A stretch of 64,000 nt of DNA from Mytilus trossulus (Eukaryota), in NCBI RefSeq assembly GCF_036588685.1, contig NC_086381.1, forward strand, positions 44,268,001 to 44,332,000, given 5' to 3'. Each line of letters starts with the position of its first letter. The stretch's first letter is position 1. Positions 6,001 to 64,000 of the stretch are shown piece by piece. The notes under the pieces were generated by a model. It was not told where the DNA came from, searched no databases, and was given only the letters and a program-made list of their open reading frames with translations. Made by a program: the position numbers and the translations under genes.

Positions 6001-9000
6001 ATACCCCTCTTTTTGTTTACGTTTTGACAAAATTACAGCTACGCGTAGGAACTATTTTGTTTAACTTATGTACTACTTTCTGGTATGTTCTTTTGTGACC
6101 GGGCCAGCATTTTTGCTTCAATACCTTATTGGTGTCAAGCGGAAAATGAAAGAACTGACACACTCTATTTTAATTTGGAAATTAGTGCAGACACCCCTTC
6201 AAACTTTAAATAAGTCTTACTAATTTCCTGGATAGAAAAGAAAAAAAAATTAAGCGATAATTAAAACAAATACTGTTATATGTTTTAATTCAACAAAATT
6301 CAGAATCTTTTTGAAAGGATTTTATTGACGTATAACTTGTATCTTCCTTTTTTCCTATTAAATGTTTCAAAAAAGTTGTTTCCTTTTTACTAAAACATTG
6401 AAAATACGATCGCATTTGATAGCTGTTGATTATCAGGGGAATAAATCTATTTGACGGCAGCCCCCCCCCCCCCTTTTCTTAAATAAATCTAAAAGCAATG
6501 CAAAAAGCAAAAATAAAACATAAATACACTAAAAAAATCATTCGCCAATCATAATACGAAACAAAACAAGCTTGTTCTTTCTGAACCCAGCATACATTGT
6601 ATTGGGTTCGAAACCCTTATATAGTACACAATTTGTAAAGTTTCCTCAGAGAAGGTATTGAAAAAATCTGGACAGAAATATACGTATTGTATACGTTTGT
6701 GGGTTTTGGGGCATTTTTCGTCTTTTTGGAAGTTGTGATCTGCAAAGTTTAAAATTAGATAGTTGCAAAAAGAGTTAAACAACGTATAAATCATGAAAGG
6801 AGTCTTTATCGTGGTTTTTTTTAGAAAACAATTCATAATTTTGCAAATCTGTGAATTTATCCGTTTATTAGTATACCTTTTTCATTAAATAATGTTTACA
6901 TATAAATTTGCAAAGAAACAGTTTCATGTTAACCACAGACTAGAAGTAAAGCTTTAGACCTGGTGGGAACTAATAAAGATAAAAAAAAAAAGACCTGGTG
7001 GGAACTCTACCCTTGTTGGGTTTGAGTAAAACTCGTACGTCTAGGCGACGAGATTAATTTTAAGACACAACTTTCTCCATTTCTCTCTTTGATACTTTTG
7101 CCAATGAAAAGGGGGATGATGGGAACCTATAACTGTTATATAACCCTGTTTAACGGTTTTTTGTCTATGTCAGAATACTTGGCGATTGTTGTCTTTCGTC
7201 ATATCGTATTGTCAGTACCGCCCCCCCCCCCTTTATTAATATAGAACTTAGATTTGTTTTGTTGAATTTATATGTTTAAAAAAAAAGAAGATGTGGTATG
7301 ATTTCTAATGTAACAACTCTCTACAAGAGACCAAAGGACACAGATATTAATAACTATAGGACATCGTACGGCCTTCAACAATGAGCAAAACCCATATCGC
7401 ATAGTCAGCTTTAAAGGAAATGTAATAGAATTCAAATAAAATAACTAACGGTCTCATCTATGTACAAAATAAGTAACGAAAAACAAATATATCTTTCATA
7501 TAATCGAGACAATTAAGAGCAAGAAATATTGTGTGGTGACCTGACTATTGTCGCGGACTGTACGTATGCATCAAGATATTTATTTCCGTTAATTCTGTCG
7601 TTAGGTTATTGTTCCATTGACATATTATAACCCTCATCTGGTTCTCCTTCTATTTCATTCTTAATTTTCCGTGTTCACTACTAGGTGAGAAAAAAATTAA
7701 TATATAAATCTGATTGCACCTATATACCATATTGTCAGGACACCGGTCCATTTTTTAAGATTACACGTCCCTCTCTCGATGTCTTTTGGTTATTTGTGTA
7801 GTTGGATTGCTGTCTCATTGCCGTATACTTCACATCAACTTTTATTCATGCAGCTTATGACTACAAAAAATATTATCATATCAGCCTGATAGTACACTGC
7901 TAATTTTTTTTGTCTTTGTTTATAATATAGCGGATTGACATAATTGTGTCGGGGTTTAACGTCCAGTGACAAATATTTCATGTATAGTCAAGGCCATTGT
8001 GTCAGCTAGAAATTAAATCGTAAAGATATTGCGCATATGTCTTGTCCACTTCAACATTGGCTATTTTTGTATTTTCTGAGTGAAGAAAGAAAGAAACTTG
8101 CGCACTTACTTCAAGTGTGTTTTCTGGAACAAAAAACACTAATGCATAGCCTTCTGTGTTATATTATGCAATTTTGAGCATTTAAAGCTACTTTTGTCTT
8201 TTAATTAGTAAAGTGGCAGTCATTTCATAACAAAACTATACGTTGAATTAGGCCTTTAGATTTCTAAATTAAACTGACTCCTATTTTATTTTTGTCTGGG
8301 TTTTTTCGTAGCCGACTTTACGGTTTGGGTTTTTCTCATTGTTGAAGACCGTACGATTGTCTATAATTACGTACATCGACTTCATTTGAACTTTTGTTGA
8401 TAGTTCTCTCATTAGCAGTCTTTATTTATATACATAATCGACTTGACTGCGCTGAAAAAATATCTTAATTTACATATTACAATGCACTGGTTCCAAAAAG
8501 TTGGGTTATATGAAAAATATATCAAAAAAAAAACCAACCAGGTACTTCCGTCCCGAATGACAAGGCAAATATGACCCCTATCAAAGTATCAAATATTAAT
8601 TTATTATTCAAGAGAAACTGTCATCGAGGATTCTACAGTGATCCCAAGACCTGGCGCTTTCATTTGACACAAAAATACCCCTCTTTTTGTTTACGTTTTG
8701 ACAAAATTACAGCTACGCGTAGGAACTATTTTGTTTAACTTATGTACTACTTTCTGGTATGTTCTTTTGTGACCGGGCCAGCATTTTTGCTTCAATACCT
8801 TATTGGTGTCAAGCGGAAAATGAAAGAACTGACACACTCTATTTTAATTTGGAAATTAGTGCAGACACCCCTTCAAACTTTAAATAAGTCTTACTAATTT
8901 CCTGGATAGAAAAGAAAAAAAAATTAAGCGATAATTAAAACAAATACTGTTATATGTTTTAATTCAACAAAATTCAGAATCTTTTTGAAAGGATTTTATT

Positions 9001-12000
9001 GACGTATAACTTGTATCTTCCTTTTTTCCTATTAAATGTTTCAAAAAAGTTGTTTCCTTTTTACTAAAACATTGAAAATACGATCGCATTTGATAGCTGT
9101 TGATTATCAGGGGAATAAATCTATTTGACGGCAGCCCCCCCCCCCCCCCTTTTCTTAAATAAATCTAAAAGCAATGCAAAAAGCAAAAATAAAACATAAA
9201 TACACTAAAAAAATCATTCGCCAATCATAATACGAAACAAAACAAGCTTGTTCTTTCTGAACCCAGCATACATTGTATTGGGTTCGAAACCCTTATATAG
9301 TACACAATTTGTAAAGTTTCCTCAGAGAAGGTATTGAAAAAATCTGGACAGAAATATACGTATTGTATACGTTTGTGGGTTTTGGGGCATTTTTCGTCTT
9401 TTTGGAAGTTGTGATCTGCAAAGTTTAAAATTAGATAGTTGCAAAAAGAGTTAAACAACGTATAAATCATGAAAGGAGTCTTTATCGTGGTTTTTTTTAG
9501 AAAACAATTCATAATTTTGCAAATCTGTGAATTTATCCGTTTATTAGTATACCTTTTTCATTAAATAATGTTTACATATAAATTTGCAAAGAAACAGTTT
9601 CATGTTAACCACAGACTAGAAGTAAAGCTTTAGACCTGGTGGGAACTAATAAAGATAAAAAAAAAAAGACCTGGTGGGAACTCTACCCTTGTTGGGTTTG
9701 AGTAAAACTCGTACGTCTAGGCGACGAGATTAATTTTAAGACACAACTTTCTCCATTTCTCTCTTTGATACTTTTGCCAATGAAAAGGGGGATGATGGGA
9801 ACCTATAACTGTTATATAACCCTGTTTAACGGTTTTTTGTCTATGTCAGAATACTTGGCGATTGTTGTCTTTCGTCATATCGTATTGTCAGTACCGCCCC
9901 CCCCCCCCCTTTATTATTATAGAACTTAGATTTGTTTTGTTGAATTTATATGTTTAAAAAAAAAGAAGATGTGGTATGATTTCTAATGTAACAACTCTCT
10001 ACAAGAGACCAAAGGACACAGATATTAATAACTATAGGACATCGTACGGCCTTCAACAATGAGCAAAACCCATATCGCATAGTCAGCTTTAAAGGAAATG
10101 TAATAGAATTCAAATAAAATAACTAACGGTCTCATCTATGTACAAAATAAGTAACGAAAAACAAATATATCTTTCATATAATCGAGACAATTAAGAGCAA
10201 GAAATATTGTGTGGTGACCTGACTATTGTCGCGGACTGTACGTATGCATCAAGATATTTATTTCCGTTAATTCTGTCGTTAGGTTATTGTTCCATTGACA
10301 TATTATAACCCTCATCTGGTTCTCCTTCTATTTCATTCTTAATTTTCCGTGTTCACTACTAGGTGAGAAAAAAATTAATATATAAATCTGATTGCACCTA
10401 TATACCATATTGTCAGGACACCGGTCCATTTTTTAAGATTACACGTCCCTCTCTCGATGTCTTTTGGTTATTTGTGTAGTTGGATTGCTGTCTCATTGCC
10501 GTATACTTCACATCAACTTTTATTCATGCAGCTTATGACTACAAAAAATATTATCATATCAGCCTGATAGTACACTGCTAATTTTTTTTGTCTTTGTTTA
10601 TAATATAGCGGATTGACATAATTGTGTCGGGGTTTAACGTCCAGTGACAAATATTTCATGTATAGTCAAGGCCATTGTGTCAGCTAGAAATTAAATCGTA
10701 AAGATATTGCGCATATGTCTTGTCCACTTCAACATTGGCTATTTTTGTATTTTCTGAGTGAAGAAAGAAAGAAACTTGCGCACTTACTTCAAGTGTGTTT
10801 TCTGGAACAAAAAACACTAATGCATAGCCTTCTGTGTTATATTATGCAATTTTGAGCATTTAAAGCTACTTTTGTCTTTTAATTAGTAAAGTGGCAGTCA
10901 TTTCATAACAAAACTATACGTTGAATTAGGCCTTTAGATTTCTAAATTAAACTGACTCCTATTTTATTTTTGTCTGGGTTTTTTCGTAGCCGACTTTACG
11001 GTTTGGGTTTTTCTCATTGTTGAAGACCGTACGATTGTCTATAATTACGTACATCGACTTCATTTGAACTTTTGTTGATAGTTCTCTCATTAGCAGTCTT
11101 TATTTATATACATAATCGACTTGACTGCGCTGAAAAAATATCTTAATTTACATATTACAATGCACTGGTTCCAAAAAGTTGGGTTATATGAAAAATATAT
11201 CAAAAAAAAAACCAACCAGGTACTTCCGTCCCGAATGACAAGGCAAATATGACCCCTATCAAAGTATCAAATATTAATTTATTATTCAAGAGAAACTGTC
11301 ATCGAGGATTCTACAGTGATCCCAAGACCTGGCGCTTTCATTTGACACAAAAATACCCCTCTTTTTGTTTACGTTTTGACAAAATTACAGCTACGCGTAG
11401 GAACTATTTTGTTTAACTTATGTACTACTTTCTGGTATGTTCTTTTGTGACCGGGCCAGCATTTTTGCTTCAATACCTTATTGGTGTCAAGCGGAAAATG
11501 AAAGAACTGACACACTCTATTTTAATTTGGAAATTAGTGCAGACACCCCTTCAAACTTTAAATAAGTCTTACTAATTTCCTGGATAGAAAAGAAAAAAAA
11601 ATTAAGCGATAATTAAAACAAATACTGTTATATGTTTTAATTCAACAAAATTCAGAATCTTTTTGAAAGGATTTTATTGACGTATAACATGTATCTTCCT
11701 TTTTTCCTATTAAATGTTTCAAAAAAGTTGTTTCCTTTTTACTAAAACATTGAAAATACGATCGCATTTGATAGCTGTTGATTATCAGGGGAATAAATCT
11801 ATTTGACGGCAGCCCCCCCCCCCCCCCCTTTTCTTAAATAAATCTAAAAGCAATGCAAAAAGCAAAAATAAAACATAAATACACTAAAAAAATCCTTCGC
11901 CAATCATAATACGAAACAAAACAAGCTTGTTCTTTCTGAACCCAGCATACATTGTATTGGGTTCGAAACCCTTATATAGTACACAATTTGTAAAGTTTCC

Positions 12001-22362: not shown

Positions 22363-22560
22363 TGTTGAAGTAAGAATTGCAACATAAATAAAAGATAAAT
22401 AAGTAGTCCAATGTTTAACAAATTTCTGATAAATAGTACCTATAATTTTCATTTATTTTGTTAATAACATGTGCACAATTTTGTATATGTATTGCCTCTG
22501 TCACAAAACGATCGTTCATGTTATAACTACTTTTTTGGTTGAATAACTTTTTTAGAAAAC

Positions 22561-24169
22561 TGTGACGTAGAAAATATTCGTTCAAAATAGAATAGAAGAA
22601 TATTTAATAAATGAAAGTATATTCAATAGATAGAACAAAGACTTGTTAAATTTACAATTAAATAAAGAGGTTCATATTTTAAGAGAAACATAATAAAATT
22701 GATTTAAAAAGTTTTAAACCAAGTTACAACGCAATGTTATGTAACAGGAAATTATAGAAAACATTATCAAAAAGATTGTGACATGTTAATCCCCCTGAAA
22801 TAAATTAAGCTTTAATAATTATGAAAAGGGGCACATTTTAGACAATAAATCATTATCAATAGGGATAGCGTCCCGCCGAAGGCAAAGCGATTATTTTATA
22901 AAAAAATAATCGTCTATTGTATAATAGGTTTTAGGGAGGAGTAACTCAAATTAATTTTAAATTGAGGAATAAATTATCTTGTGATTGGACAAACAAATTT
23001 AGGTTGATCTTTGAGTGACCACGTGGAAAAAAGGTTTTAAGGGATAAATTTTGATAATAAACTTCACTTGGTCACTTGATAGCAAGAATAAAGATATAGC
23101 CTGAATTTGTGTCCATTATATTTAAGGTATGTAAAGTATAAGTGTTAACAATTAATTAAGAATAATAATTTAACTCTTAATGGATTTATTTTGTTAAATC
23201 AAATTAAAGTAAAAGAACCTTTTCAGTTACGATAAGTATATTTATATAATTTGTAAAGTTTATAGGTTTGTTGAATATTAGGTAATTCAATCAAGAATTT
23301 AAGCATATAATAAGTTCCGTAAAGATTACATGTTTGCAGCTATTGGTTTTATTTTATAATATTAAAGGGACATAATTTGATATTGTTTAGAACGATACTC
23401 GTTTGAAGAAAACAATTTTAGAAATAATAAGAACCAAAGGAATATTTAAAATGATATTTATAGATAAGTTCAACTCTAAGATAGTCAGGAAACTGAACAA
23501 TAAGCAGTAAGTCTTGGGAAGGCGAAAATAATTAGGTTTGATCAACAAGAGAAAATGTTTATATCAACGGGATACTAGGACTGTAAAATAATGTTTATTA
23601 CTTAAGAATGCAAAGATATAAGTAAATATATATTGCTCGAAAGTCCTTAATTAATTATGTCTTTCAATTCGGATCATGCATTTTATAATATAAGTTATTT
23701 ATTTTTATAAGAAATAAAATATACTGCCAGTTCAATTTGAGCTTGAAATGTGAAGATTATATATGAGATTGAGATATACAATTTTACAATGTTCATTGTT
23801 AAAGGTTTATAATAAAGTATTTAGTTTGACAAATAGTCAGGGACTATCCAAATTGAGTGTTAACTCTAATTTCATATATATATTTAAGAATGTAAAGATG
23901 AGAGTTAGTTCCCTTGTTAAAAGATGATTTTGGAATATGCAGAATTTATATTTAAGGTTCTTTATATGCATGTATGTTTCTTTTATTTTTGATATCGTTA
24001 ATTCATAATGTATGTACAATTGTAATTAAATGTTCATGATGTTCACTTGGTCACTTGATAGCAAGAATAAAGATATAGCCTGAATTTGTGTCCATTATAT
24101 TTAAGGTCCAGCGGCAAAAAGTTATCAAGTATAGCACGATACAAAACACCCCCAAGTATCGACACAACA
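22561..24169 (+). repeat. 5' LTR (1609 bp)
   Basis: Starts tgtgacgtag, ends gacacaaca; repeated at a constant offset of 11184. Reverse CCAAT (gattgg ~22983), CACGTG (~23020) and GATAAA (~23043) precede Inr-like TCACTT at ~23064. Confidence 0.97.
23063..23128 (+). repeat. 66 bp LTR-internal direct repeat, copy 1 (copy 2 at 24042-24107; 3' LTR copies at 34247-34312 and 35226-35291)
   Basis: ttcacttggtcacttgatagcaagaataaagatatagcctgaatttgtgtccattatatttaaggt is identical in all four places and contains AATAAA. Copy 1 continues as the splice donor AAG|GTATGT. Confidence 0.95.
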
Positions 24170-24173
24170 GATT

Positions 24174-24182
24174 TGGTGGAGG
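24174..24182 (+). promoter_or_regulatory. Primer-binding site (TGGTGGAG; possibly tRNA-Ala)
   Basis: Lies 4 nt after the LTR end; complementary to a tRNA 3' end ...CUCCACCA. The tRNA identity is tentative because the match is short. Confidence 0.7.
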
Positions 24183-24214
24183 AGAGAGGAAAGAACGGTA
24201 CCTAAAATTTAGAA

Positions 24215-25483
24215 ATGCCAAGCACCCCCCTAAACAGAAACTTGCGGTCGACCAACAAAACCACAGAAGGAGACCAGCAAGCAACAGAAAGAATCATAAC
24301 AACTGAACCAACTCAACGTAGAACAGAAAGTGTTGGAACAACAGCTGGTACAAGTGGAATTTCAACAACTAGTACAAGTGGAATTTCAACAACTGGTACA
24401 ACTGGAACTACAACAACTAATAATAGTGACAACACAACAACTGGTACAACTCAAGTTACTACAGTGGAAATACATCCAGAAAGTGACACACAAGGAATAG
24501 TACAACATACAACCATGCAACAACAGGACCAAGCACAACAAAATCCACAGGTACAACCTTTTATATTTAATGCAACAGCACTCCTTCAACCGTCAATATA
24601 TGACGGATCTTCAAAACCTTCATCATGGATTTCCCAATTTTCATCATGGACTAAACTACAAAACCTAACAGACAAAAACGCCATAAATGCGTTAACATTC
24701 TATCTAACTGGTTCAGCAAAAATTTGGTTTCAAAGTTTGCCAGATTCAGCAAAAACAAATCTAGCATCAATTATAAAACTTCTAGAAGTAAGATTTACAA
24801 CATCAGATGATGAAGATATTCTAACAACACAAGCAACAAATGAAAGTGTACATGAATTTTTAGACCGACTTACTCTTAAAGCTACAAGTCAACGCATCCC
24901 AGAATGCTTAGTTCTAAAAATAGCAAGAAAAGGGTTTAAACAGGCCCTACAACAATCCATTATACAGCAAAATCCGAAAAACATGGCCGAATTAAGAGAA
25001 GCCGCAGTCATTGCAGAAAAATGCTTAGCATCAAACATCAGTCAACAAATTTCAATCAATGCCATTTCACAAAATGACTTTAAATCATTAAGTGATACAA
25101 TTAAATTATTATCTGACAAGGTAGAAAATTTAAATATTGAAAATCAAGAACTGAAGGCCAACTTTGGCAAGGCCAATCAAAATTATCAAAACAAGCCAAA
25201 TTGGCAAAATAATAGAGCGCCTGGCAGAAACTTTAATGGTCAAAGAAATTTTCAAAAGAATTCAACTTATCAACAAGCTAGACCAGCTTACAATTCAAAT
25301 GCCAGCTGGAACTCATATAATAAAACCAACACATGCACAGCATGTGGCAATATGTCATGTTCAGGCAAAAGGGAAACTTGCGATGCAAGTGATAAAAAAT
25401 GTTATAAATGTGAAAGAATTGGACATTACTCAAGGCAATGTCATAGTATCAGAAACATAAGAGGCGAAATTATTAGGCACTAG
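24215..25483 (+). CDS. gag: Gag (422 aa): Thr-rich N-terminus, capsid-like region, coiled coil, C-terminal zinc knuckle
   Basis: PSIYDG...W...F, LTGSAKIWFQSL and QATNESVHEFLDRL are retrotransposon-gag-like motifs; CYKCERIGHYSRQC is a CCHC knuckle; the ORF directly follows the PBS. Confidence 0.93.
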   Translation: MPSTPLNRNLRSTNKTTEGDQQATERIITTEPTQRRTESVGTTAGTSGISTTSTSGISTTGTTGTTTTNNSDNTTTGTTQVTTVEIHPESDTQGIVQHTTMQQQDQAQQNPQVQPFIFNATALLQPSIYDGSSKPSSWISQFSSWTKLQNLTDKNAINALTFYLTGSAKIWFQSLPDSAKTNLASIIKLLEVRFTTSDDEDILTTQATNESVHEFLDRLTLKATSQRIPECLVLKIARKGFKQALQQSIIQQNPKNMAELREAAVIAEKCLASNISQQISINAISQNDFKSLSDTIKLLSDKVENLNIENQELKANFGKANQNYQNKPNWQNNRAPGRNFNGQRNFQKNSTYQQARPAYNSNASWNSYNKTNTCTACGNMSCSGKRETCDASDKKCYKCERIGHYSRQCHSIRNIRGEIIRH

Positions 25484-28400
25484 GGACGCGAGCCTATTTT
25501 TAGGCGGCTGTCTAAAAGTGGGCATAGTGGCAAGTCTCCAAGAGTTAACTTAATTACCCCTATGGATAAAAATAAAATTTCAATAGAAGTTTATGATGTT
25601 AAAACAATAGGACTTGTTGATACAGGTGCCTCTATCTCATGTGTCTCAGAAAACTTGATAAATAAGTTAAGTAATAGTAAAATAGAACTTGAGAGAACAA
25701 ATTTTATGAATATTTATGGAGTAGGAGGTGAAGAACATAAAGTATTGGGTAAAGTTACGCTCCCACTTAAATTTCAAGGACTTGTCATTAAACATAGATT
25801 TCATGTAGTTCAAGATCTACAATATCCTGTAATTTTAGGTGATGAATTTTTATTACAAAATAAATGTAATATCCATTATCCCTCCCGTACATTGTATATA
25901 CATGAAGGGTCACTACAAGTTTCCCTCCTTAGTACAAAATCTGGAAAAGCAAGAACGGCTAAAAGATTTAAAGTACCTGCTAATAGTATGGCAAATGTTT
26001 CAGTAAAAATTTCAGATATTTTTTTGAATGATGTAGTGTTATTAGAACCACTACCTTTACTTAACAAATATGAACTGATAGGAGCCTCTTGTTTAGTAAA
26101 AGTTTCTAAATCGGGTTCAAAATTTCAAATTATTAACCCTACTGATATGGCAGTCACAATACCTAAATTTAGCATAATAGCAAATGTGATGCCAGTGGTT
26201 GAAGATAGTATTCAAAGCTTGTCTGATGATAAAAGTGAAAAACAAAAAAACGAATGTGTAGCAAATATAAATAGTTCAAAAGTGAAAAAGGAAAAAAGTA
26301 AAAGATCTAAAAGTAAAATAGATTTTGACCTTGACTCATCAGATATGACAAATGATCAGAAACAAAAATTTTTGAAATTTTTAAATGTAAATAGAGATGT
26401 GTTTGCAGCTGACTTGTCTGAACTGGGGAAATGTAATATAGGGGAACATAAAATTGAAACTACTGACAACATTCCTATTAGAGTACCCCCATACAGAGCA
26501 ACGCCCAAGGTTAAAGCTGAAATAGAAAAGCAAATCGACAAAATGTTAGATAACAAAATTATTGAACCGTCCACTTCCCCGTACAACAGCCCAGTTGTGC
26601 TTTGTCAGAAAAAGGATAAGTCCTTTAGATTTTGTATAGACTATCGCAAGCTAAATGCTAAGACAACTGTAGAATGCTGGCCTTTAGCAAGCTTAAATGA
26701 CGTTTTCGACGCTATTGGGGAAGCAAAAGCCACTATATTTACTAGTCTCGATCTTTGTCAGGGATATTGGCAAGTCCCACTACACAAAGACTCACGGGAA
26801 AAAGCTGCTTTTGTAACTCATTCAGGAATATATGAATGGACAAGAATGCCATTTGGTCTGAGAAACAGCAGTATTACTTTTTCAAGAGTTATAAGTCAAG
26901 TACTACAAGGTTTAAACTGGAAAAATGTATTGGCTTACATAGATGATATTTTGGTATTTAGTAAAAATTTAGAAGATCACATGCATCATTTAGATCAAGT
27001 TTTCGACCGACTTAAAAAGGCTAACCTCAAACTAAAACCAAGCAAATGTCACTTTGGAGTTAAACAAGTAAACTACTTAGGTCATATTTTGACAAAAGAA
27101 GGTGTTACAACAGATCCTGAAAAGATACATATTGTCAAAAATCACCCAGCTCCTAAAAACCAACATGAGGTACGACAATTTCTAGGCTTATGTAACTATT
27201 ACAGAAAATTTGTGGAAGGCTATGCAAAAATAACAATTCCATTAAATTCCCTACTACAAAAGGAAAGTGAATTCAAATGGACAGACAAATGCCAAGAATC
27301 ATTTGAATTATTAAAATCAAAGTTAATATCTGCACCAATTTTGGCATTCCCAGACATGTCAAAACCTTTTATTCTAACCACAGATGCATCAGGTCAAGCG
27401 ATAGGGTATATACTTGGTCAAAAAGATGACCAAAATAGGGAAAGAGTAATATCTTTTGGTGGTCGGGCCCTGAAAAAGGAAGAAAAGAAATGGACTGTTA
27501 GTGAAAAAGAATGTTTGGCTGTGTTAGAAGGAATTAAACACAATAGGGTCTATTTATCCCATGACAAATTCACTGTTTTCACTGACCACAAAGCTTTATT
27601 ATGGTTAAATAAGGTTAAAGATACAAATGCAAAATTAGGAAGATGGGCACTAGAGTTGCAGAATTTTACTTTTGATATAATCTTCAAAGAAGGTAAAAAT
27701 AACAAAAATGCAGATGCAATCTCAAGAATACCCTACCCACCCACCCCTGAAAAGGTAGATAGTAATCAAGTCGAGGTACTAGGCTTAGAAACAAAGGAAC
27801 CAGAAGATGTAGGTATGTTAACAGAAATTACATTTGAATATGAAATTCAAAAACCATGTATTGCTGCCATAAATGATGAAAATGACAATGAGGTAAGATT
27901 AAATGATATGTCGGAAATAGCAAAGCTACAAAGACAATGTACAGAATTGTCAGACTTAGTAACCTTTCTAGAAAGTGGTATATTACCTCAAAATGATAAA
28001 AAGGCAAAAAGTATAATATACGAAAAAGACCTGTACAGGTTCGGCACAGAAGGTGAGTTAATACATCAATACCTACCTAGAACGAAAGGAGTACCTAGAT
28101 CAGAAGTAATGATTGAACAAATTGTACTTCCAAAATGCATGAGACAAGAAGCTTTAGAAGCATACCATGATTGTAGAGCTGGTGGAGGTCATAAAGGTTT
28201 TCGTAGAACATATGCAGCTTTACAACAAAAATACTACTGGTCTGGTATGTATCAAAATGTGTACAACTATGTCATTTCTTGTGATGCATGTCAGAGAGCA
28301 AAAAGACCAACAAATAAACGACCAGCACCATTGATGCCTCTGCCAGTCGCAGAAACATTTGAAAGATGGCACATGGATATCTTATCAGGGTTTCCAACAA

Positions 28401-29608
28401 GTAAAGATAAGTATCAACATGTATTACTAGTGGTTGACAGTTTCTCACGATGGGCTGAAGCATTTCCGCTGAGAACACAAGAAGCTAAGGAAATTGCTCA
28501 TATTTTGTACAAAGAGGTATTTACTAGATTTGGAAGTCCTAAAACTTTGGTGTCTGATAGAGGTCAAAATTTCTGCTCAAAGCTAATACAAGCTTTATGT
28601 GAACTTTTCCATGTTACACGTCACACAACAAGTTCATATCACCCACAATCAAATACAACATGTGAAAGGATGAATAGTACAATAGCTCAGACCTTGCGTA
28701 CATATTGTACTAAAGACCAAATAAATTGGCCAGAGCTAATTCCAAGTGTTATGATGGCTTTACGGATGTCACCAAACACAGAGTCAACAGGATACTCCCC
28801 ATTTCATATGGTTTTTGGTAAGGAAATGAACATACCATTTGATATCTCAGTTAAACCGAAAGAAAACATAGGTAGGTCAGTGAAAGAACATATTAATGAT
28901 CTTATAGAACACTTAAAAGCAGTCCAAACAATTGCCAAGAATAATGTAAGTAAAAGTCAGGAGAAAACTAAGACATACTATGACAAAAAGGCAGCAAAAC
29001 CAAAATTTCAAGTAGGTGACAGAGTTTTGATGCAATGCATGAAAGTACCTAAAGGGTCAGCGCCTAAACTCCATGAAAAATGGGTAGGTCCTTTTTATAT
29101 TAACCATGCCAATGAAAACACTTATAAGTTAAGAAGGTTAAGTGATCATAAATTGATAAAGTCAAGAATCCATGCAAATAGAATAAAAATATATGTGGAT
29201 CCTAGGGACCATAGGCAACCCCAAGTAGATAGACAAGTAGACGAACAACAGACTGACAATACACATGACGGACAACAAAATAATGAAGAAAATATTCAAG
29301 AAAATGATAACAATGATGTTCAAGAAAATGATAATGATAATGTTCAAGAAAATGATAATCAGAATGAGAATGATGAATTAAATGATGATAATCAATTTGA
29401 AGCTGAAAAGCTAGTAGCAAAGAAAAGACAAAATGGGCAAAATTTTTACAGGGTCAAATGGGTTGGATATAAAAAAACAACCTGGATACCTGAAAAAGAC
29501 ATTGGTGAAGGTTTGTTGGTTGACTTTCACAATAAACATACCAAAGATGGAAAAATAAGAAAAAGAAAACATATGACATGTTTTCAAAATCAAAAACATA
29601 AAGATTAA
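25484..29608 (+). CDS. pol: Pol: protease, reverse transcriptase, RNase H, integrase, C-terminal chromodomain (first ATG 25562; frame open from the gag stop)
   Basis: LVDTGAS (PR), RMPFGL and YIDD (RT), TTDASG and FTDHKAL (RH), H..H..CDAC, WHMD / VSDRG / CERMN (IN), WVGPF, then FEAEKLV...YRVKWVGY...TWIPEKDI (chromo). Confidence 0.98.
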   Translation, partial: GREPIFRRLSKSGHSGKSPRVNLITPMDKNKISIEVYDVKTIGLVDTGASISCVSENLINKLSNSKIELERTNFMNIYGVGGEEHKVLGKVTLPLKFQGLVIKHRFHVVQDLQYPVILGDEFLLQNKCNIHYPSRTLYIHEGSLQVSLLSTKSGKARTAKRFKVPANSMANVSVKISDIFLNDVVLLEPLPLLNKYELIGASCLVKVSKSGSKFQIINPTDMAVTIPKFSIIANVMPVVEDSIQSLSDDKSEKQKNECVANINSSKVKKEKSKRSKSKIDFDLDSSDMTNDQKQKFLKFLNVNRDVFAADLSELGKCNIGEHKIETTDNIPIRVPPYRATPKVKAEIEKQIDKMLDNKIIEPSTSPYNSPVVLCQKKDKSFRFCIDYRKLNAKTTVECWPLASLNDVFDAIGEAKATIFTSLDLCQGYWQVPLHKDSREKAAFVTHSGIYEWTRMPFGLRNSSITFSRVISQVLQGLNWKNVLAYIDDILVFSKNLEDHMHHLDQVFDRLKKANLKLKPSKCHFGVKQVNYLGHILTKEGVTTDPEKIHIVKNHPAPKNQHEVRQFLGLCNYYRKFVEGYAKITIPLNSLLQKESEFKWTDKCQESFELLKSKLISAPILAFPDMSKPFILTTDASGQAIGYILGQKDDQNRERVISFGGRALKKEEKKWTVSEKECLAVLEGIKHNRVYLSHDKFTVFTDHKALLWLNKVKDTNAKLGRWALELQNFTFDIIFKEGKNNKNADAISRIPYPPTPEKVDSNQVEVLGLETKEPEDVGMLTEITFEYEIQKPCIAAINDENDNEVRLNDMSEIAKLQRQCTELSDLVTFLESGILPQNDKKAKSIIYEKDLYRFGTEGELIHQYLPRTKGVPRSEVMIEQIVLPKCMRQEALEAYHDCRAGGGHKGFRRTYAALQQKYYWSGMYQNVYNYVISCDACQRAKRPTNKRPAPLMPLPVAETFERWHMDILSGFPTSKDKYQHVLLVVDSFSRWAEAFPLRTQEAKEIAHILYKEVFTRFGSPKTLVSDRGQNFCSKLIQALCELFHVTRHTTSSYHPQSNTTCERMNSTIAQTLRTYCTKDQINWPELIPSVMMALRMSPNTESTGYSPFHMVFGKEMNIPFDISVKPKENIGRSVKEHINDLIEHLKAVQTIAKNNVSKSQEKTKTYYDKKAAKPKFQVGDRVLMQCMKVPKGSAPKLHEKWVGPFYINHANENTYKLRRLSDHKLIKSRIHANRIKIYVDPRDHRQPQVDRQVDEQQTDNTHDGQQNNEENIQENDNNDVQENDNDNVQENDNQNENDELNDDNQFEAEKLVAKKRQNGQNFYRVKWVGYKKTTWIPEKDIGEGLLVDFHNKHTKDGKIRKRKHMTCFQNQKHKD

Positions 29609-30042: not shown

Positions 30043-32445
30043 ATAAAAAGACAGGTGTCTGCTTTGATCAGCCCAATTGCCATTTTGTTTTGGATATTCA
30101 TCATGTTAACAGCTTTCATTCAGTTAAGTGAAGCAAAGTCTACTCATAAACAAATTCTTAAACTTAATTATGGCATTATATTTGAAAAACAAGGTAGAAT
30201 TCATTTTGGAAAAGATGTCTGGAAACATACCTTTCAAATTAAAATGCCAATAAAGAGAGGAAGTGTAGAAATTCAGCAATGTAAACAAAAGCAAATATGC
30301 AAAAGATACAATGAAATGATTGTACAACTAGATTTGTTGCAAAAGCAAAATGTGGTTAATTTAAATGAAACCGTAAATGTGATAAAAGAATTAATACCAA
30401 CCAACAAACCAACACTAGTCAAAGGTAGAAGAAAATCTAAAAGAGCAATCTTATCTTTCGTGGGGCAATTATCAAAAACTCTATTCAATACAGCAACTAT
30501 GGATGATGTAAACCTATTAGCAAGGCACATAAATGCCCTAACTACTAGAACATTAAAGTTAACAAATACAATGGCTCAACATGATCAGCATGAATCTTCA
30601 TATATGGCTTCTGTGGATAAAAGAATTTCAAACCTAGTTACGCAAATATCAGACAATCATAATGAAATTAATATGATGCAAAAATCTGTATTAGACAATG
30701 TCAGAGAAGCAGAAAATTTATTTCTGCATCTTCAAGCAAAGATAATAGAATCATTTTCTTTATCTTCAAAAATTAATCAGCAACTGGAACAATTGAAATT
30801 GGGAATTTTTGATTTAGTACAGGGAAAATTGTCTCCCTTACTAATAAAACCTTCAACTATAACCAGCACACTAAACAGGATACAACAGGTATTAAACACA
30901 AAATACCCAGGATTTTATATTTCGCAAACTAGTCAAAATTTTTATTATGATACCAAAAATTTTGTATTTTCAAAACATAAATCTGATATATTTGTGATGT
31001 TAAACATACCATTAGCATATAAAATGTCAAAATTTGACTTGTATAAAGTAACGTCTTTGCCATTTCCACATAATTCAACAACTCATGCTACACAATTGTT
31101 AAATACCCCTAAATATATAGCTATTACAAAAGATAAACAATATTATATAACATTGTCAGACCAAGAAGTAGAAAAATGTACCAAATATAATGATAATTTT
31201 CATTGTCAGTTTACAAAATCATTTTCAACTAGTATAAACTCATGTTTAATATCAATATATAATAACCAAAAAGAGAAGGTAAACCAATTGTGTGACTTCA
31301 GATTTTTACATGATGTAATAAAACCAAAAATTGTTGCATTAACACAATCATCTGTAGTAATATATAAAACCCCACAGTTAAATATGGATTGTAATGGAAA
31401 ACAAATAATAAAACAAGGTTGTGATTTTTGTATAATTCAAATCCCATGCAGATGTTCTATTTTAACTAAAAACTTATATATTCCACCATCATTTACAAAT
31501 TGTAAAAGATCAAATAATATAACTACTATATATCCAATAAATCTTGCTTTATTACAACAATTTTTTGATGCTAAACAATTAAAAGATATTCAACCTAATT
31601 CTACATTTAGTACATTACCAAATATTGCAATTCCAAACTTTAAAATGTATAATCATTCTTTTTCAACATTTTTGTCAAATGATAGAAGAAATCATTTAAG
31701 CCTTACAAAGATGGCTGAAGCTACAAAGAAAGAAGGCATGGTTTTCCATAATTTGGCAGAGCCACTGCTAGAAGGAATCATAAATGTTAAAGATAGTTGG
31801 CCTGATTTAAATGGTATTTTAGGCATGATAGGAACAGTACTAGCATCCATATCATTTATTTTTGCTATATGGGCATTCTTTAAAATAAAAAACCTAACAA
31901 CAGCAATAATAATACTTCAAGGATCTTGCCATGTAAAAGCTATGACAGCACCATCATTTATTTATAAAAACATTCAAACAACAACATCAAACCCAATTTC
32001 ATCAAATTTTTTTAATGAACTAAAATTTAATCATATTTTGGTGGCCATAATTGGTATTTTGATTGTCATTGTGGTTTTTCTTGTATTATACAAAAAGAAA
32101 AAAAGTTCTCAACACACATTTATATCATTAGAGATAACCACAGGTTCAAACTGCTTAACTCTTCCCCTTTGCAAGCTACCACTATGTCCATCATATTGGA
32201 CTTTTTCAATGCCACCAGAAGTTGAAAGTCTCAGTGTTTCTGGAATTTTTAGACCTAGTTTACATATTAATTGGGAAGATTTTATCATAACAAATACTTT
32301 GACACAAAAATCTATAGTAGGTCCTAAAAGTATTAAAATTTCTTTCTGGGAAGCTTTACGCTTAAAACAAATTTTAAAACAACCATTTTTTGTTTATATT
32401 TTATTAAAACACAATAATATGTACAAAATCATAAACGAGCCTTGA
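30043..32445 (+). CDS. env: Env-like class I fusion glycoprotein (baculovirus-F/errantivirus type), probably expressed by splicing
   Basis: N-terminal hydrophobic signal, furin site RRKSKR (30427-30444) followed by the fusion-peptide-like AILSFVGQLSKTLFNTATMDD, heptad region, Cys-rich region and two C-terminal hydrophobic segments. The frame opens right after ctaac...ttctctcgttgtag at 30042. Confidence 0.9.
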   Translation: MKRQVSALISPIAILFWIFIMLTAFIQLSEAKSTHKQILKLNYGIIFEKQGRIHFGKDVWKHTFQIKMPIKRGSVEIQQCKQKQICKRYNEMIVQLDLLQKQNVVNLNETVNVIKELIPTNKPTLVKGRRKSKRAILSFVGQLSKTLFNTATMDDVNLLARHINALTTRTLKLTNTMAQHDQHESSYMASVDKRISNLVTQISDNHNEINMMQKSVLDNVREAENLFLHLQAKIIESFSLSSKINQQLEQLKLGIFDLVQGKLSPLLIKPSTITSTLNRIQQVLNTKYPGFYISQTSQNFYYDTKNFVFSKHKSDIFVMLNIPLAYKMSKFDLYKVTSLPFPHNSTTHATQLLNTPKYIAITKDKQYYITLSDQEVEKCTKYNDNFHCQFTKSFSTSINSCLISIYNNQKEKVNQLCDFRFLHDVIKPKIVALTQSSVVIYKTPQLNMDCNGKQIIKQGCDFCIIQIPCRCSILTKNLYIPPSFTNCKRSNNITTIYPINLALLQQFFDAKQLKDIQPNSTFSTLPNIAIPNFKMYNHSFSTFLSNDRRNHLSLTKMAEATKKEGMVFHNLAEPLLEGIINVKDSWPDLNGILGMIGTVLASISFIFAIWAFFKIKNLTTAIIILQGSCHVKAMTAPSFIYKNIQTTTSNPISSNFFNELKFNHILVAIIGILIVIVVFLVLYKKKKSSQHTFISLEITTGSNCLTLPLCKLPLCPSYWTFSMPPEVESLSVSGIFRPSLHINWEDFIITNTLTQKSIVGPKSIKISFWEALRLKQILKQPFFVYILLKHNNMYKIINEP

Positions 32446-32932
32446 GTTTTGTTGACAATTGCCTGAACATGAATATTTTCTATCTTGTCATCATATAAAT
32501 AATATATAGTAAGGTTAGGATTGTGAAAAATGGCACCGGATTATAAATGACATTAACATTAGTGGAAATGAGAAAAACGGAGGAATTCGAAGAAATGAAA
32601 TATATGTGAATATTGAAGAATACTAAAGCAACTACAAGATGTCATGTGTTATACGTTCAACATAGAAGGATAGGATTCAATAACATCATTATTTCGTGTG
32701 GAGAAACCAACTGTGTAGATATAATTCATGGATATTGTTACAAGAAATAACCGAATATAATGTATTTTTCCGTATATTGCGCGACCTTGTTACCTTTATA
32801 CAAAAATTATCTCGTATTCTGTTTTTACTTATTAACAAAAATGTAAATGTGTTTTATTTGTGAAAATGTATGATCATATATATGTTACATTATGTTTGAA
32901 TATTAATCATATGTTGTATTATTTTGTTATAG

Positions 32933-33595
32933 ATATTTAACCATAGTTACTTCTTTTCATCCAGTAGAGGACGTGGAATCAAACAACATATTAAATGCAA
33001 AGATTTTTTTGTTAAACCAGGTGCCAAACTTTTTGATCTTTGTGAAATAGCATTTCAAAAATTGAAAAATATAAAAGAAAAGAAATTAGTTTACATTATG
33101 GCAGGAATTCCTGACATGTGTGTTAAAGACAAAGACTACAAGAAAACATATGAAGAAGTATATTTTGACAAAAAAAGTGACAAAGTCATTGAAATTAAAC
33201 ATGCCTTAGAATTTATTACAGAAAGGTTAAGTAAAATAAATTGCTATATCATTTATGTTCCAATTACAACAATGAATATTGAAAAATGGAACTACCATAG
33301 ACTTTATATAAATAAAACAAAATTCCTTCTTCATACAGAAAACTATATGAAAATGCAAGACAACTTAAATTGGGCTGTTCATCAGATAAATATATATATT
33401 ATAAGCCACAATAAAACATCTGAATTGGCAACTCCATTAATACAAGCATATGTACACAAATCTACTGGATCAAAGAAAAGATATGCATATGCAAAACTGG
33501 TGGATGGTGTTCATCCATCAGAACAATTGATTCAATCATGGGTAAAACAAATAAAAAAAACCATGAGTGAAAATGAATCCAGGTTACAAATGTAG
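32933..33595 (+). CDS. ORF4: SGNH/GDSL hydrolase-fold protein (~220 aa) inside the retroelement
   Basis: The frame is open from 32933, upstream of the track's 33062 start: IFNHSYFFSSSRGRG (block I), FVKPGAKL (II), VYIMAGIPD (III), LVDGVHPS (V). It begins directly after the acceptor-like attttgttatag. Confidence 0.8.
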   Translation: MFNHSYFFSSSRGRGIKQHIKCKDFFVKPGAKLFDLCEIAFQKLKNIKEKKLVYIMAGIPDMCVKDKDYKKTYEEVYFDKKSDKVIEIKHALEFITERLSKINCYIIYVPITTMNIEKWNYHRLYINKTKFLLHTENYMKMQDNLNWAVHQINIYIISHNKTSELATPLIQAYVHKSTGSKKRYAYAKLVDGVHPSEQLIQSWVKQIKKTMSENESRLQM

Positions 33596-33744: not shown

Positions 33745-35353
33745 TGTGACGTAGAAAATATTCGTTCAAAATAGAATAGAAGAATATTTAATAAATGAAA
33801 GTATATTCAATAGATAGAACAAAGACTTGTTAAATTTACAATTAAATAAAGAGGTTCATATTTTAAGAGAAACATAATAAAATTGATTTAAAAAGTTTTA
33901 AACCAAGTTACAACGCAATGTTATGTAACAGGAAATTATAGAAAACATTATCAAAAAGATTGTGACATGTTAATCCCCCTGAAATAAATTAAGCTTTAAT
34001 AATTATGAAAAGGGGCACATTTTAGACAATAAATCATTATCAATAGGGATAGCGTCCCGCCGAAGGCAAAGCGATTATTTTATAAAAAAATAATCGTCTA
34101 TTGTATAATAGGTTTTAGGGAGGAGTAACTCAAATTAATTTTAAATTGAGGAATAAATTATCTTGTGATTGGACAAACAAATTTAGGTTGATCTTTGAGT
34201 GACCACGTGGAAAAAAGGTTTTAAGGGATAAATTTTGATAATAAACTTCACTTGGTCACTTGATAGCAAGAATAAAGATATAGCCTGAATTTGTGTCCAT
34301 TATATTTAAGGTATGTAAAGTATAAGTGTTAACAATTAATTAAGAATAATAATTTAACTCTTAATGGATTTATTTTGTTAAATCAAATTAAAGTAAAAGA
34401 ACCTTTTCAGTTACGATAAGTATATTTATATAATTTGTAAAGTTTATAGGTTTGTTGAATATTAGGTAATTCAATCAAGAATTTAAGCATATAATAAGTT
34501 CCGTAAAGATTACATGTTTGCAGCTATTGGTTTTATTTTATAATATTAAAGGGACATAATTTGATATTGTTTAGAACGATACTCGTTTGAAGAAAACAAT
34601 TTTAGAAATAATAAGAACCAAAGGAATATTTAAAATGATATTTATAGATAAGTTCAACTCTAAGATAGTCAGGAAACTGAACAATAAGCAGTAAGTCTTG
34701 GGAAGGCGAAAATAATTAGGTTTGATCAACAAGAGAAAATGTTTATATCAACGGGATACTAGGACTGTAAAATAATGTTTATTACTTAAGAATGCAAAGA
34801 TATAAGTAAATATATATTGCTCGAAAGTCCTTAATTAATTATGTCTTTCAATTCGGATCATGCATTTTATAATATAAGTTATTTATTTTTATAAGAAATA
34901 AAATATACTGCCAGTTCAATTTGAGCTTGAAATGTGAAGATTATATATGAGATTGAGATATACAATTTTACAATGTTCATTGTTAAAGGTTTATAATAAA
35001 GTATTTAGTTTGACAAATAGTCAGGGACTATCCAAATTGAGTGTTAACTCTAATTTCATATATATATTTAAGAATGTAAAGATGAGAGTTAGTTCCCTTG
35101 TTAAAAGATGATTTTGGAATATGCAGAATTTATATTTAAGGTTCTTTATATGCATGTATGTTTCTTTTATTTTTGATATCGTTAATTCATAATGTATGTA
35201 CAATTGTAATTAAATGTTCATGATGTTCACTTGGTCACTTGATAGCAAGAATAAAGATATAGCCTGAATTTGTGTCCATTATATTTAAGGTCCAGCGGCA
35301 AAAAGTTATCAAGTATAGCACGATACAAAACACCCCCAAGTATCGACACAACA
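33745..35353 (+). repeat. 3' LTR (1609 bp)
   Basis: Same length as the 5' LTR and no differences seen by eye; followed by TSD AAAC. Confidence 0.97.
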
Positions 35354-35564
35354 AAACTGTAAAAAAAAAAAATGTATATCGGATCTGGCCGTTCAATGAT
35401 AAAACATTTAGCCTGATATTTTCATTTTCATGATGAGTGTAGCATTCTTTTTTAGTGAAGGGAGAAAAAAGAGATAAAAAAGAAATACAGTATAGAGAAA
35501 AATGTACTTAAAATGTCAAGAATACATATTTAAGACCCTGTAAAATGGTGTTTGGAAAATACTT

Positions 35565-36341: not shown

Positions 36342-38099
36342 ATGAAGACAGGAACGTTTACATTCGTATTTGGAGTTTTATTTCTATATTGCGCAAATGG
36401 TAAGTTAACATTTAAAGTTAATTCGTATCATGTTAGTAATAAATTAATTATTCTTTAAAAATAATTTGAATAAGTAATTTAAGGTACCAATGAAAATGAC
36501 ATTTATATATTTGTTGCGCTTTTCTGGATATGTCTCAGTCATCAGTAACGCTCATGCTCCAAAATAGACAAGCAAGTCCATTATGATATATATATTCACT
36601 CTTAAATACAGATGCACTGTCATGTTTTGTAATTGTGAAAAATGCAACATCTTGAAAAGAGAACGAACTGCTGTACTTGTTAACTTGTTTTGTTGACCAA
36701 TTGACCCGTTAATGTTGATCTCTATATCTCTCTTTATTCACCTGAAATATAAAAATTTATATCAAAAACTTTTATTAAATTTATTTTTCATTTTTCAATT
36801 TTAGGTCATAAATATCACAGCTACCGCAGATATGGGAGGCACCACGTGAAACATCGACCTATTAAACAGGAAGGGTCCTTACTTCCGGTAAATCCTCCTG
36901 TAAACATATGTCCACCTCTTGTTTGTCCATTGATTGATATTCCAAACGAATGTCGAAAGGAAATATATACTAATGTGTATGGAGTACTTTGCAGAGGATG
37001 TGACAAAAATATATGTGTAAATAATAAAATAGTTCCAGACATTACAAAAATTCAACCGGACAATGGACCAAGTAGAGGTGACATTCCAAAAGTTCCAAAG
37101 TTTGTCAATCAAATGACCGGTAAACTTACCGGAAGTTGGCTCGATGCAAATCTGAATCCAAAGCCTGTATATATACCAAATAATCAATTTCAAATCAATA
37201 ACAACATTCCATTGCCAAACAATGTTCCGGTCTGGCAAAATAGTTTGAACACGCAGTGGACAAATAATGGGCCCCTGAATCCACAATGGCAAAGTAATGT
37301 TCCAGCAAATATCCAATGGCAAGATAATGTACCAATCAACTCTCAATGGCAAAATACAATACCAATGAACAACCAGTGGCAGAACAATGGAGCTGGTAAC
37401 AGTTTATGGCAAAATAACGTAGCTGGCAACAGTCTTTTGCAAAATAATGGAGCTGGCAACAGTCTATTGCAAAATAATATAGCTGGCAACGGTCTATTGC
37501 AAAATAATGTAGCTGGCAACGGTCAATGGCAAAACAGTGGAGCAGTAAATTCACAATGGCAAAATATTTTGCCAAATAATCAATTGCAGAACACACTGCC
37601 GATCGATCAAAACAACATGCAATTTCCTGTTAATAATCAATGGCAAAGTGCACCTGTGTTTAGACAGCAACCCAACACACTTACTGTACTTGGAACATTA
37701 GCACAAGGTGGACCGTCTCAAAACACACCATTTGTACGTGGATCTTTCCAATCACCAAACCAAGCTATCCCACAATTCAATCAGAACCCGTCAGGTAGTT
37801 CTTTGCCTGTTTTTAGAAACAATCAACAGATAGGGACACCAATATCTGGTCTACCTATTCAACTTACCGGAAAAGACGTGAAGTCGGTCCCGATTCGAAA
37901 AGAAAGTGATCAAAATGGGAAAATAGTCGAATCAGCTCCTGTTCTCATAAAAACTAGCGAAAATCTTGGATTTACCAATCCGCTATATAATGAATTACCG
38001 TTCGTTCAAACTATCGACAGTATAAACAGTAAAGTATATGATGCGAATGCACCCGAAGCTTTAATCACCAAAGCTGTAAACTCAGTTGGTGGCGTGTAA
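36342..38099 (+). CDS. Secreted Asn/Gln/Pro/Trp-rich repeat protein, 2 exons, 450 aa (possible shell-matrix or byssal-type structural protein)
   Basis: Exon 1 (36342-36399) encodes the signal peptide MKTGTFTFVFGVLFLYCANG and ends G|GTAAGT. Exon 2 (36805-38099) follows tttttcaattttag, phase 1, in frame with the 417 aa ORF. It has a His/Arg/Tyr-rich start, a 6-Cys module and decapeptide repeats ending QWQN/LLQN. Confidence 0.88.
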
Positions 38100-63700: not shown

Positions 63701-64000
63701 ACAGACCACACAAGAGCTGAGTTCGCCGATAAAGTCATCATCTTTGATGAGTGATACAATACAGACTCCAATAGCAATGAGTTCCTCGATACAGTCATCA
63801 TTAGTGATGAGTGATGAAATACAAATTTCACCATTAATGGATTCATCTATCAAGTCATCATTAGTGATGAGTGATACACTTCAAACTTCTCCAGTAACAG
63901 TAACGGAGTCAACAATACAAACTTCGCCAGAGATGAGTTCAGCGATAGAGTCGTCATTGGTGACAAATAATACAAGACAGACTTCTGTATTGCTGGATTC
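57754..64000 (+). CDS. Giant exon encoding a Ser/Thr-rich mucin-like repeat protein (>2080 aa, runs off the window)
   Basis: Acceptor tttgtttatttcag, then AASTSVLDGKNESIPAPRPMSLQQ... The same frame holds at both ends, and the ORF track has no plus-strand ORF terminating here, consistent with no stop. ~20 aa repeats such as SSTIESSSVMSDTIQTSPVM. Confidence 0.88.
58630..64000 (+). repeat. Degenerate 60 bp coding tandem repeat
   Basis: Consensus-like agttcaacgatagagtcatcatcagtgatgagtgatacaatacagacttcaccagtgatg, visible as vertical alignment in the 60-nt lines. Confidence 0.95.

Follow-up and report, generated by a model that had tools for sequence, protein, structure and literature searches.

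Results

An env-bearing Ty3/gypsy element carries a fourth gene

The window analyzed here is the 64,000-nucleotide stretch of the Mytilus trossulus genome at positions 44,268,001 to 44,332,000 of contig NC_086381.1 (assembly GCF_036588685.1), and coordinates refer to it unless another location is named. It contains an intact Ty3/gypsy element with LTRs, gag, pol, env and a fourth gene, an SGNH exon, with the following features.

22557–22560, no strand: target-site duplication AAAC, 4 bp, left copy (right copy at 35354–35357)
22561–24169, + strand: 5′ LTR, 1609 bp, TG...CA, matching the 3′ LTR exactly
24174–24189, + strand: primer-binding-site-like sequence, starting TGG
24215–25483, + strand: gag, with weak Retrotrans_gag and zf-CCHC matches
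24548–24556, + strand: splice donor CAG/GTACAA, after gag codon 112, phase 0 (env joint in runs X1 and X5)
25484–29608, + strand: pol, 1374 aa, with protease, RT, RNase H, integrase and chromodomain
30043–32445, + strand: env, 800 codons from a TAG/ acceptor, phase 0
32908–32932, + strand: SGNH-exon acceptor, pyrimidine tract and AG, with the frame beginning right after TAG
32933–33595, + strand: SGNH-fold exon, a stop-free frame of 220 codons between env and the 3′ LTR
32963, 33020, 33110, 33503 and 33512, + strand: key SGNH codons S11, G30, P60 (the Asn site), D191 and H194, respectively
33745–35353, + strand: 3′ LTR

AAAC is found at both ends of the element, and the LTR pair is identical at 1609/1609 positions; each LTR holds a 66-bp exact direct repeat with its copies 979 bp apart (23063–23128 and 24042–24107 in the 5′ LTR). 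The first 112 codons of gag form a Thr-rich leader. A single in-frame TAG separates gag from pol, and pol would be reached from gag by readthrough of this codon. The env product has an RKSKR cleavage-like site and hydrophobic segments at its C-terminus, and a Pfam search with it returned nothing above the cut-off. PF12259 was matched by 22 of 45 env relatives (E ≤ 1e-30), two relatives are named envelope fusion proteins, and the hosts are mussels, scallops, a pearl oyster, a clam and abalones. By sequence, we classify the window env as a probable F-type env placed after pol. The TG..CA LTRs, the target duplication and the PR-RT-RH-IN order of env-carrying Ty3/gypsy elements (ancient errantiviruses) are all present. 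The SGNH exon lies between env and the 3′ LTR, as first noted from the sequence, with noncoding flanks of 487 and 149 bases.

Three other features of the window were recorded. A tandem array with a unit of ~2.68 kb (1–12000) and a 60-bp-period tandem array with long minus-strand frames (58700–64000) are unrelated to the SGNH finding; at 36753–38099, an Asn/Gln-rich frame of 448 codons that contains 30-bp repeats and matches no Pfam family is probably a host exon.

The exon encodes a predicted SGNH-fold protein

The earlier note described an intact frame of about 220 codons with the SGNH blocks in order, and this description holds: the frame is free of stops, the motifs FFSSSRGRG, PGA, AGIPD and DGVHP follow one another along it, and 220 codons were reached in 0/2000 shuffles of the env-to-LTR interval (mean 73, max 173). 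The frame has no start codon of its own; its first Met is codon 56, past the catalytic Ser, with no ATG before block III.

By itself the window protein did not match Pfam GDSL or any entry in a PDB sequence search, in which a 19-row profile gave nothing under E 0.19; Lipase_GDSL was matched by 7 of the 19 aligned relatives at E ≤ 1 (best 1.2e-5). The AlphaFold2 model built from the 19-row alignment has a mean pLDDT of 94.7 and a pTM of 0.90. All 50 matches listed in the VIA fold search are SGNH/GDSL-type proteins (best Z 17.0, rmsd 2.5, 164 residues), the Oskar OSK domain (Z 14.3) among them, and Foldseek matches agree, including the ZfL2-1 esterase 4c1b (E 4.8e-4). Both searches returned bacterial sialate O-acetylesterases, and HE protein was absent among the fold matches listed. 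In the model, the window protein adopts an SGNH fold, a parallel five-stranded sheet flanked by helices, in keeping with the fold assignment that the earlier note had put forward for checking.

Active-site conservation was assessed in relatives from a profile search (1939 clusters at E ≤ 0.001, 1081 at E ≤ 1e-10). The alignment comprises 148 of the best 150 matches (two above 400 aa were left out), drawn from different 50%-identity clusters, and counts are over rows with a residue at the site. Ser11 is present in 123/123 relatives, Arg12 in 122/123, Gly30 in 121/130, Gly58 in 139/141, and Asp191 and His194 each in 140/143, so that the Ser-Asp-His set, another point raised earlier, is conserved. 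The replacement of the block III Asn by Pro, also read correctly at the outset, extends to the whole family: among 141 relatives the site holds Pro in 79, Cys in 46, Thr in 8 and Asn in 5, being replaced in 136/141, and these counts mark the Pro as a family trait and not as damage. As we read Table 2 of PMC10792757, NanS, DltD, AlgX, AlgJ and PatB1 carry other residues at the Asn site and BACUNI_01406 has Pro there; as the Asn is also absent in these listed superfamily members, its loss excludes the canonical GDSL subgroup but not the SGNH superfamily. Block I Ser, block II Gly and block V Asp-x-x-His are present in the window protein; the block III oxyanion Asn is not.

The subfamily has near-invariant residues of its own (R12, E75 in 146/146, N120 in 148/148, T129, Q142 and T167-P168) and a signature of x-S/T-S-R in block I and G-I/L-P/C-D in block III (1081 clusters, E ≤ 1e-10). 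Atlas look-alike clusters with recorded taxa, which are few, are mostly from Mollusca and Annelida. A eukaryote-like protein of 2135 aa (P0016) carries six tandem SGNH-like repeats of the same family after an N-terminus that appears RRM-like by eye.

A shared gag donor probably supplies the leader of the SGNH protein

The gag donor is in phase with both the env and the SGNH acceptors, in the family of the window element (family 1) and in a second env-bearing family (family 2) with donor GAAGAG/GTAAAT after gag codon 44, phase 0. An equivalent acceptor stands ahead of the SGNH frame in family 2 and in env-less gypsy copies. Two RefSeq proteins correspond letter for letter to the products expected from these sites: XP_063398000.1 is gag 1–112 plus the SGNH frame of family 1, and XP_063417676.1 is family-2 gag 1–44 plus the family-2 SGNH; both are annotation models identical to the genomic frames. 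Models from M. californianus and M. edulis join the gag leader to env.

Four sequencing runs were searched, of which X1, X4 and X5 are contigs taken as RNA by guess only, and X22 is a raw-read RNA run, about 6% of which was read. Contigs of X1 and X5 contain the joint 24550/GT..AG/30043 from the gag donor to the env acceptor. No joint to the SGNH acceptor (32933) was found in the 4 runs; X22 yielded 16 reads, in 7/30 bins and none across a splice joint, and the SGNH acceptor is crossed unbroken by contigs of X1, X4 and X5. As contigs drop rare forms, the missing joint is weak counter-evidence, and, set against it, the in-phase donor and the RefSeq leader-SGNH models make the splice likely. The SGNH protein is therefore likely to be produced by splicing the gag leader onto the SGNH exon. 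In X5, a single contig extends from the env acceptor across the SGNH exon into the LTR, which indicates that the exon is also part of the env message. Depth in X1 contigs is higher over the SGNH exon than over env; this difference was set aside, as contig depth is flat and 3′ bias could account for the excess.

An 11-bp direct repeat at 32607 and 33273 brackets the 5′ half of the exon (32607–33283), and one run-X4 contig appears to join the two repeat points, which would mean that deletion variants without the active-site Ser exist.

The window SGNH exon has a predicted pI of 9.5 and no membrane segment (hydropathy mean of at most 0.74 over any 19 residues). As the gag leader is polar, neither part of the predicted leader-SGNH protein provides a signal peptide or membrane anchor; six homologues from four transposon settings have similar properties (pI 9.0–9.5, best 19-residue hydropathy mean ≤1.6). 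These properties bear on another reading of the gene, in which a donor inside env would yield a fusion of the Env ectodomain with SGNH, displayed on the particle as an HE-like receptor-destroying esterase. A donor-like AAG/GTAAAC at 31278 is in phase with the SGNH acceptor, in the automated M. edulis model CAG2216651.1 SGNH is attached to family-2 env at the corresponding position, and the sialate O-acetylesterases among the fold matches would suit such an activity. However, the 31278 to 32933 junction is absent in the 4 runs, the same GT (within a Val codon) occurs in 8 of 17 env loci that have no SGNH, and many copies of the gene sit in env-less gypsies and DNA transposons (see below). Since the gag-leader form has no signal or membrane segment, a receptor-destroying role on the virion is highly improbable.

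The gene is not specific to envelope-bearing elements

A search of the same genome gave 44 SGNH matches, 41 of which were examined and resolve into 39 loci. Nine lie after env, in two families, and 10 after pol of env-less gypsies; three follow a P-like transposase, nine precede LINE ORF2, and the other 8 are fragments or host-like copies. Four further loci linked to P-like transposases lie outside those 39, bringing this class to 7. From 75 env matches, 20 other env loci were taken for lacking a nearby SGNH match (with an LTR pair in view for 16), and a profile search found SGNH in 0/20. The linkage to env in sibling elements that the earlier note called for does exist, and in families 1 and 2, which are 47% identical, the SGNH frame is open and occupies the same position. 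Nevertheless, the SGNH gene is not envelope-specific, and the envelope-related role initially proposed (budding, entry or HE-like) is not supported, given its presence in env-less gypsies and beside the P-like transposase, its absence from the 20 other env loci and the lack of a signal or membrane segment.

An SGNH protein (57%) and an env protein (59%), both with a longest contig of 10,326 bases, suggest a putative third family with env and SGNH. A close-alignment search yielded 0 viral loci and a single metagenome locus, where a 3′ fragment of SGNH lies antisense to a gypsy.

Several neighboring arrangements were noted during this survey. The spacer between env and the SGNH acceptor (32446–32932) holds short degenerate frames and one Cys/His-rich stretch; the frames vary by small indels among copies, with a faint likeness to the family-2 spacer. 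At G000:C3:75110586-75114637 (L051, − strand) lies a P-element-like transposase frame of 1080 codons, with TNP-like RNase H and GTP-binding domains, with an SGNH frame of the same subfamily immediately behind it; six decayed loci (L111-L114, L063, L029) show this pairing too, and no terminal inverted repeats of the P-like element were found. One env element (L084:2767-3845, G000:C4 near 14.638 Mb) has two similar frames of 125 and 210 codons after env and no SGNH. An Atlas BTB/BACK-like lead for these frames reaches 0.88 only, and they suggest that the slot after env may host other accessory genes. Three elements of ~4.7 kb (L086, L087, L088) have ~460-bp LTRs and an env-like gene with no gag or pol match, and a 6.3-kb family-2 derivative (L117-L118) keeps the env 3′ region and SGNH without gag or pol.

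In an RT tree of 18 rows (copies without an unbroken RT segment being omitted), families 1 and 2 group together (99/98), placed among env elements that have no SGNH and distant from the env-less SGNH carriers; an integrase tree does not resolve the two families as a clade. In a 48-row tree of SGNH proteins, those linked to env form a clade (100/98) inside a group with those of env-less gypsies (99/93), and the LINE proteins lie on a long branch. The trees fit a single transfer, between distant gypsy lineages, of a cassette made up of acceptor and exon. In AU tests on a 16-row quick tree, a LINE-sister position of the env-linked proteins, on its long branch, was not rejected (p 0.45), and a gypsy-only clade was not established (p 0.29).

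That AU result leaves some room for the exon to be a neutral passenger or a nested fragment of LINE ORF1, as does a LINE family of the same genome in which ORF2 is directly preceded by a related SGNH frame (26% identity, hhalign probability 97%). This origin is nevertheless contradicted by conservation, selection and the ORF2 search, and we give it almost no weight: the frame is open at the same position in two families 47% identical, its acceptor is conserved, dN/dS between the families is low (next section), and a tblastn search with LINE ORF2 at two env-linked loci gave no match next to the exon. The possibility of a nested LINE fragment, raised in the earlier note as grounds for rejecting the gene, finds no support here.

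The SGNH gene is under purifying selection

Between families 1 and 2 the SGNH exon has dN 0.46 and dS about 2.5, giving dN/dS of about 0.18, and the same comparison gives 0.25 for env, 0.23 for gag and 0.13 for pol; all of these ratios are rough, as dS is near saturation. The SGNH gene is under purifying selection, at dN/dS comparable to that of env and gag, so that the neutral evolution which the earlier note named as a possible refutation is not what was found. Near-identical copies differ by too few changes for their dN/dS (0.3–0.7) to be informative, and the dN/dS analysis gave no sign of positive selection on the gene.

Two SGNH exons without the catalytic Ser and His, at G000:C2:71370460-71371074 (L052) and C2:74259277-74259900 (L053), each lie downstream of an Arg/Asp-rich low-complexity frame and are under strong purifying selection (dN/dS 0.046). 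They are likely to be domesticated host genes, and selection on them implies that the fold is useful without catalysis in that setting. These copies, together with the Asn replaced in 136/141 relatives, could be taken to mean that the subfamily is a non-catalytic binder of lipid or RNA, in which the triad is structural and loss of the Asn leaves no useful turnover. A dead enzyme would be unlikely to keep both Ser and His across 50%-identity clusters as the aligned relatives do, however, and we regard a purely binding role as unlikely.

Discussion

A tentative function for the fourth gene

By analogy with the transposon esterase ZfL2-1, the function to which we lean, with a confidence somewhat short of even, is that the fourth gene encodes a spliced leader-SGNH protein that works intracellularly, hydrolyzing acyl esters of acidic membrane lipids at a low rate, and that aids assembly or trafficking. 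The gag donor would be joined alternatively to the SGNH acceptor, giving the 332-aa leader-SGNH protein of the RefSeq models, which, having no signal or membrane segment, would be confined to cytoplasm or nucleus. Acidic phospholipids would bind to its basic surface, as in the ZfL2-1 LINE esterase, and the protein would cut or hold an acyl chain such that particles or RNPs assemble on membranes or leave them. The acceptor and exon would constitute a portable cargo module, moved between distant gypsy lineages and restricted to one branch of the env-bearing clade. Two observations sit awkwardly with this proposal. The P-like DNA transposase with SGNH at 7 loci counts against a membrane role, as DNA transposase elements form no particles, and the chemistry may differ from that of ZfL2-1, as the block III Asn is gone and block I reads S-S-S-R instead of G-D-S-L.

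A counter-defence enzyme would serve transposons of any kind, and the distribution of the gene is what brings this alternative forward. Here the intracellular protein would target an acyl group carried by a host protein, a nucleotide or an RNA-linked substrate, and removal or transfer of this group would weaken silencing or innate sensing. One subfamily occurs in env gypsies (9 loci), env-less gypsies (10) and beside P-like transposases (3 + 4), with a distant branch in LINEs (9), and its presence is patchy, as the 0/20 result among other env loci illustrates. The family-specific near-invariant residues point to one defined substrate, the Oskar OSK domain shares the fold, and several Asn-less SGNH proteins covered by PMC10792757 are acyltransferases. 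Against this, positive selection was not seen, and the sole characterized transposon SGNH protein binds lipids, not oligo-(A) RNA, in the account of PMC3905857. We consider counter-defence possible but on balance doubtful.

A bolder reading we offer as speculative: this uncharacterized SGNH subfamily would be a portable cassette of env-bearing and env-less gypsies and P-like transposons of marine invertebrates, acting on a host substrate in general counter-defence, and in the window element it would be an accessory gene in the manner of complex retroviruses, alternatively spliced from the gag donor that also serves env.

Significance and comparison with known systems

The esterases of influenza C (HEF) and coronaviruses (HE) are surface glycoproteins with a signal peptide and a membrane anchor, in which an SGNH fold stands beside a fusion glycoprotein gene. 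The window gene resembles them in that an SGNH fold adjoins a fusion glycoprotein gene and differs in that its product has neither a signal peptide nor a membrane anchor. Alternatively spliced accessory genes are a layout associated with complex retroviruses, and the element described here, an env-bearing retrotransposon of an invertebrate, probably has such a layout, with an enzyme as its alternatively spliced accessory product.

SGNH ORFs are already known from rotifer LTR elements and from LINEs. In Vesta LTR retrotransposons of bdelloid rotifers, a GDSL/SGNH ORF3 replaces env (Rodriguez, Kenefick and Arkhipova 2017, PMC5408684; the case is repeated in PMC6431247). As described there, ORF3 has no membrane segment or coiled-coil, its invariant residues are intact, an auxiliary role is proposed for it, and an SGNH ORF is common to unrelated retroelements. 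The earlier view that a dedicated SGNH ORF has no precedent in LTR elements was accordingly too strong, although in Vesta the ORF stands in place of env. Vesta and the window element are alike in having an SGNH ORF downstream of pol in a gypsy-like LTR element, a likeness drawn from the published description, and the Vesta layout (SGNH directly after pol, no env) is that of the 10 env-less mussel loci, e.g. C13, C8a and C39. In contrast, the window element has an 800-codon env between pol and the SGNH exon, with a gag donor in phase with both, and the mussel family is without the block III Asn, whereas the Vesta residues are described as intact.

Ancient env-carrying Ty3/gypsy errantiviruses with an F-type env and a chromodomain have been described from Cnidaria, Mollusca and Annelida (Chary and Hayashi 2026, PMC13524379). 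They share with the window element the gag-pol-env order, the chromodomain past the integrase and mussel hosts, and two of the mussel errantiviruses listed resemble it in LTR spacing (about 11.1 kb) and in primer-site sequence. The window element differs in its fourth gene, and most mussel env loci examined have no SGNH; the main text and 7 supplementary files of PMC13524379 make no mention of SGNH, GDSL or esterase. The literature within reach yielded no LTR element with both env and SGNH, and no DNA transposase accompanied by SGNH; Repbase, subscription journals, figures and bioRxiv supplements lay outside it and may hold such annotations.

Another known counterpart is the ORF1 esterase ZfL2-1 of CR1/L2/RTEX LINEs, reported to hydrolyze and bind negatively charged phospholipids (Schneider et al. 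2013, PMC3905857; PDB 4C1B). It is likewise transposon-encoded, with an SGNH fold, a basic surface, block II PGA and block V DGxHP. ZfL2-1 keeps GDS and GTND and is itself the Gag-like ORF1p, whereas the window protein has SSSR and GIPD and is encoded by an exon of its own, after env. Since the ZfL2-1 and rotifer papers it has been asked why transposons should carry esterases, and the mussel case separates the hypotheses: the enzyme coexists with a complete env and so is not an env substitute, and it also rides with a DNA transposase, so that its job may not concern particles at all. The SGNH domain is small and confidently modeled, and directly assayable. Relative to these known systems, the novelty lies in the arrangement of four genes around a shared gag donor, in the Asn-less subfamily, and in the spread of that subfamily to a DNA transposon.
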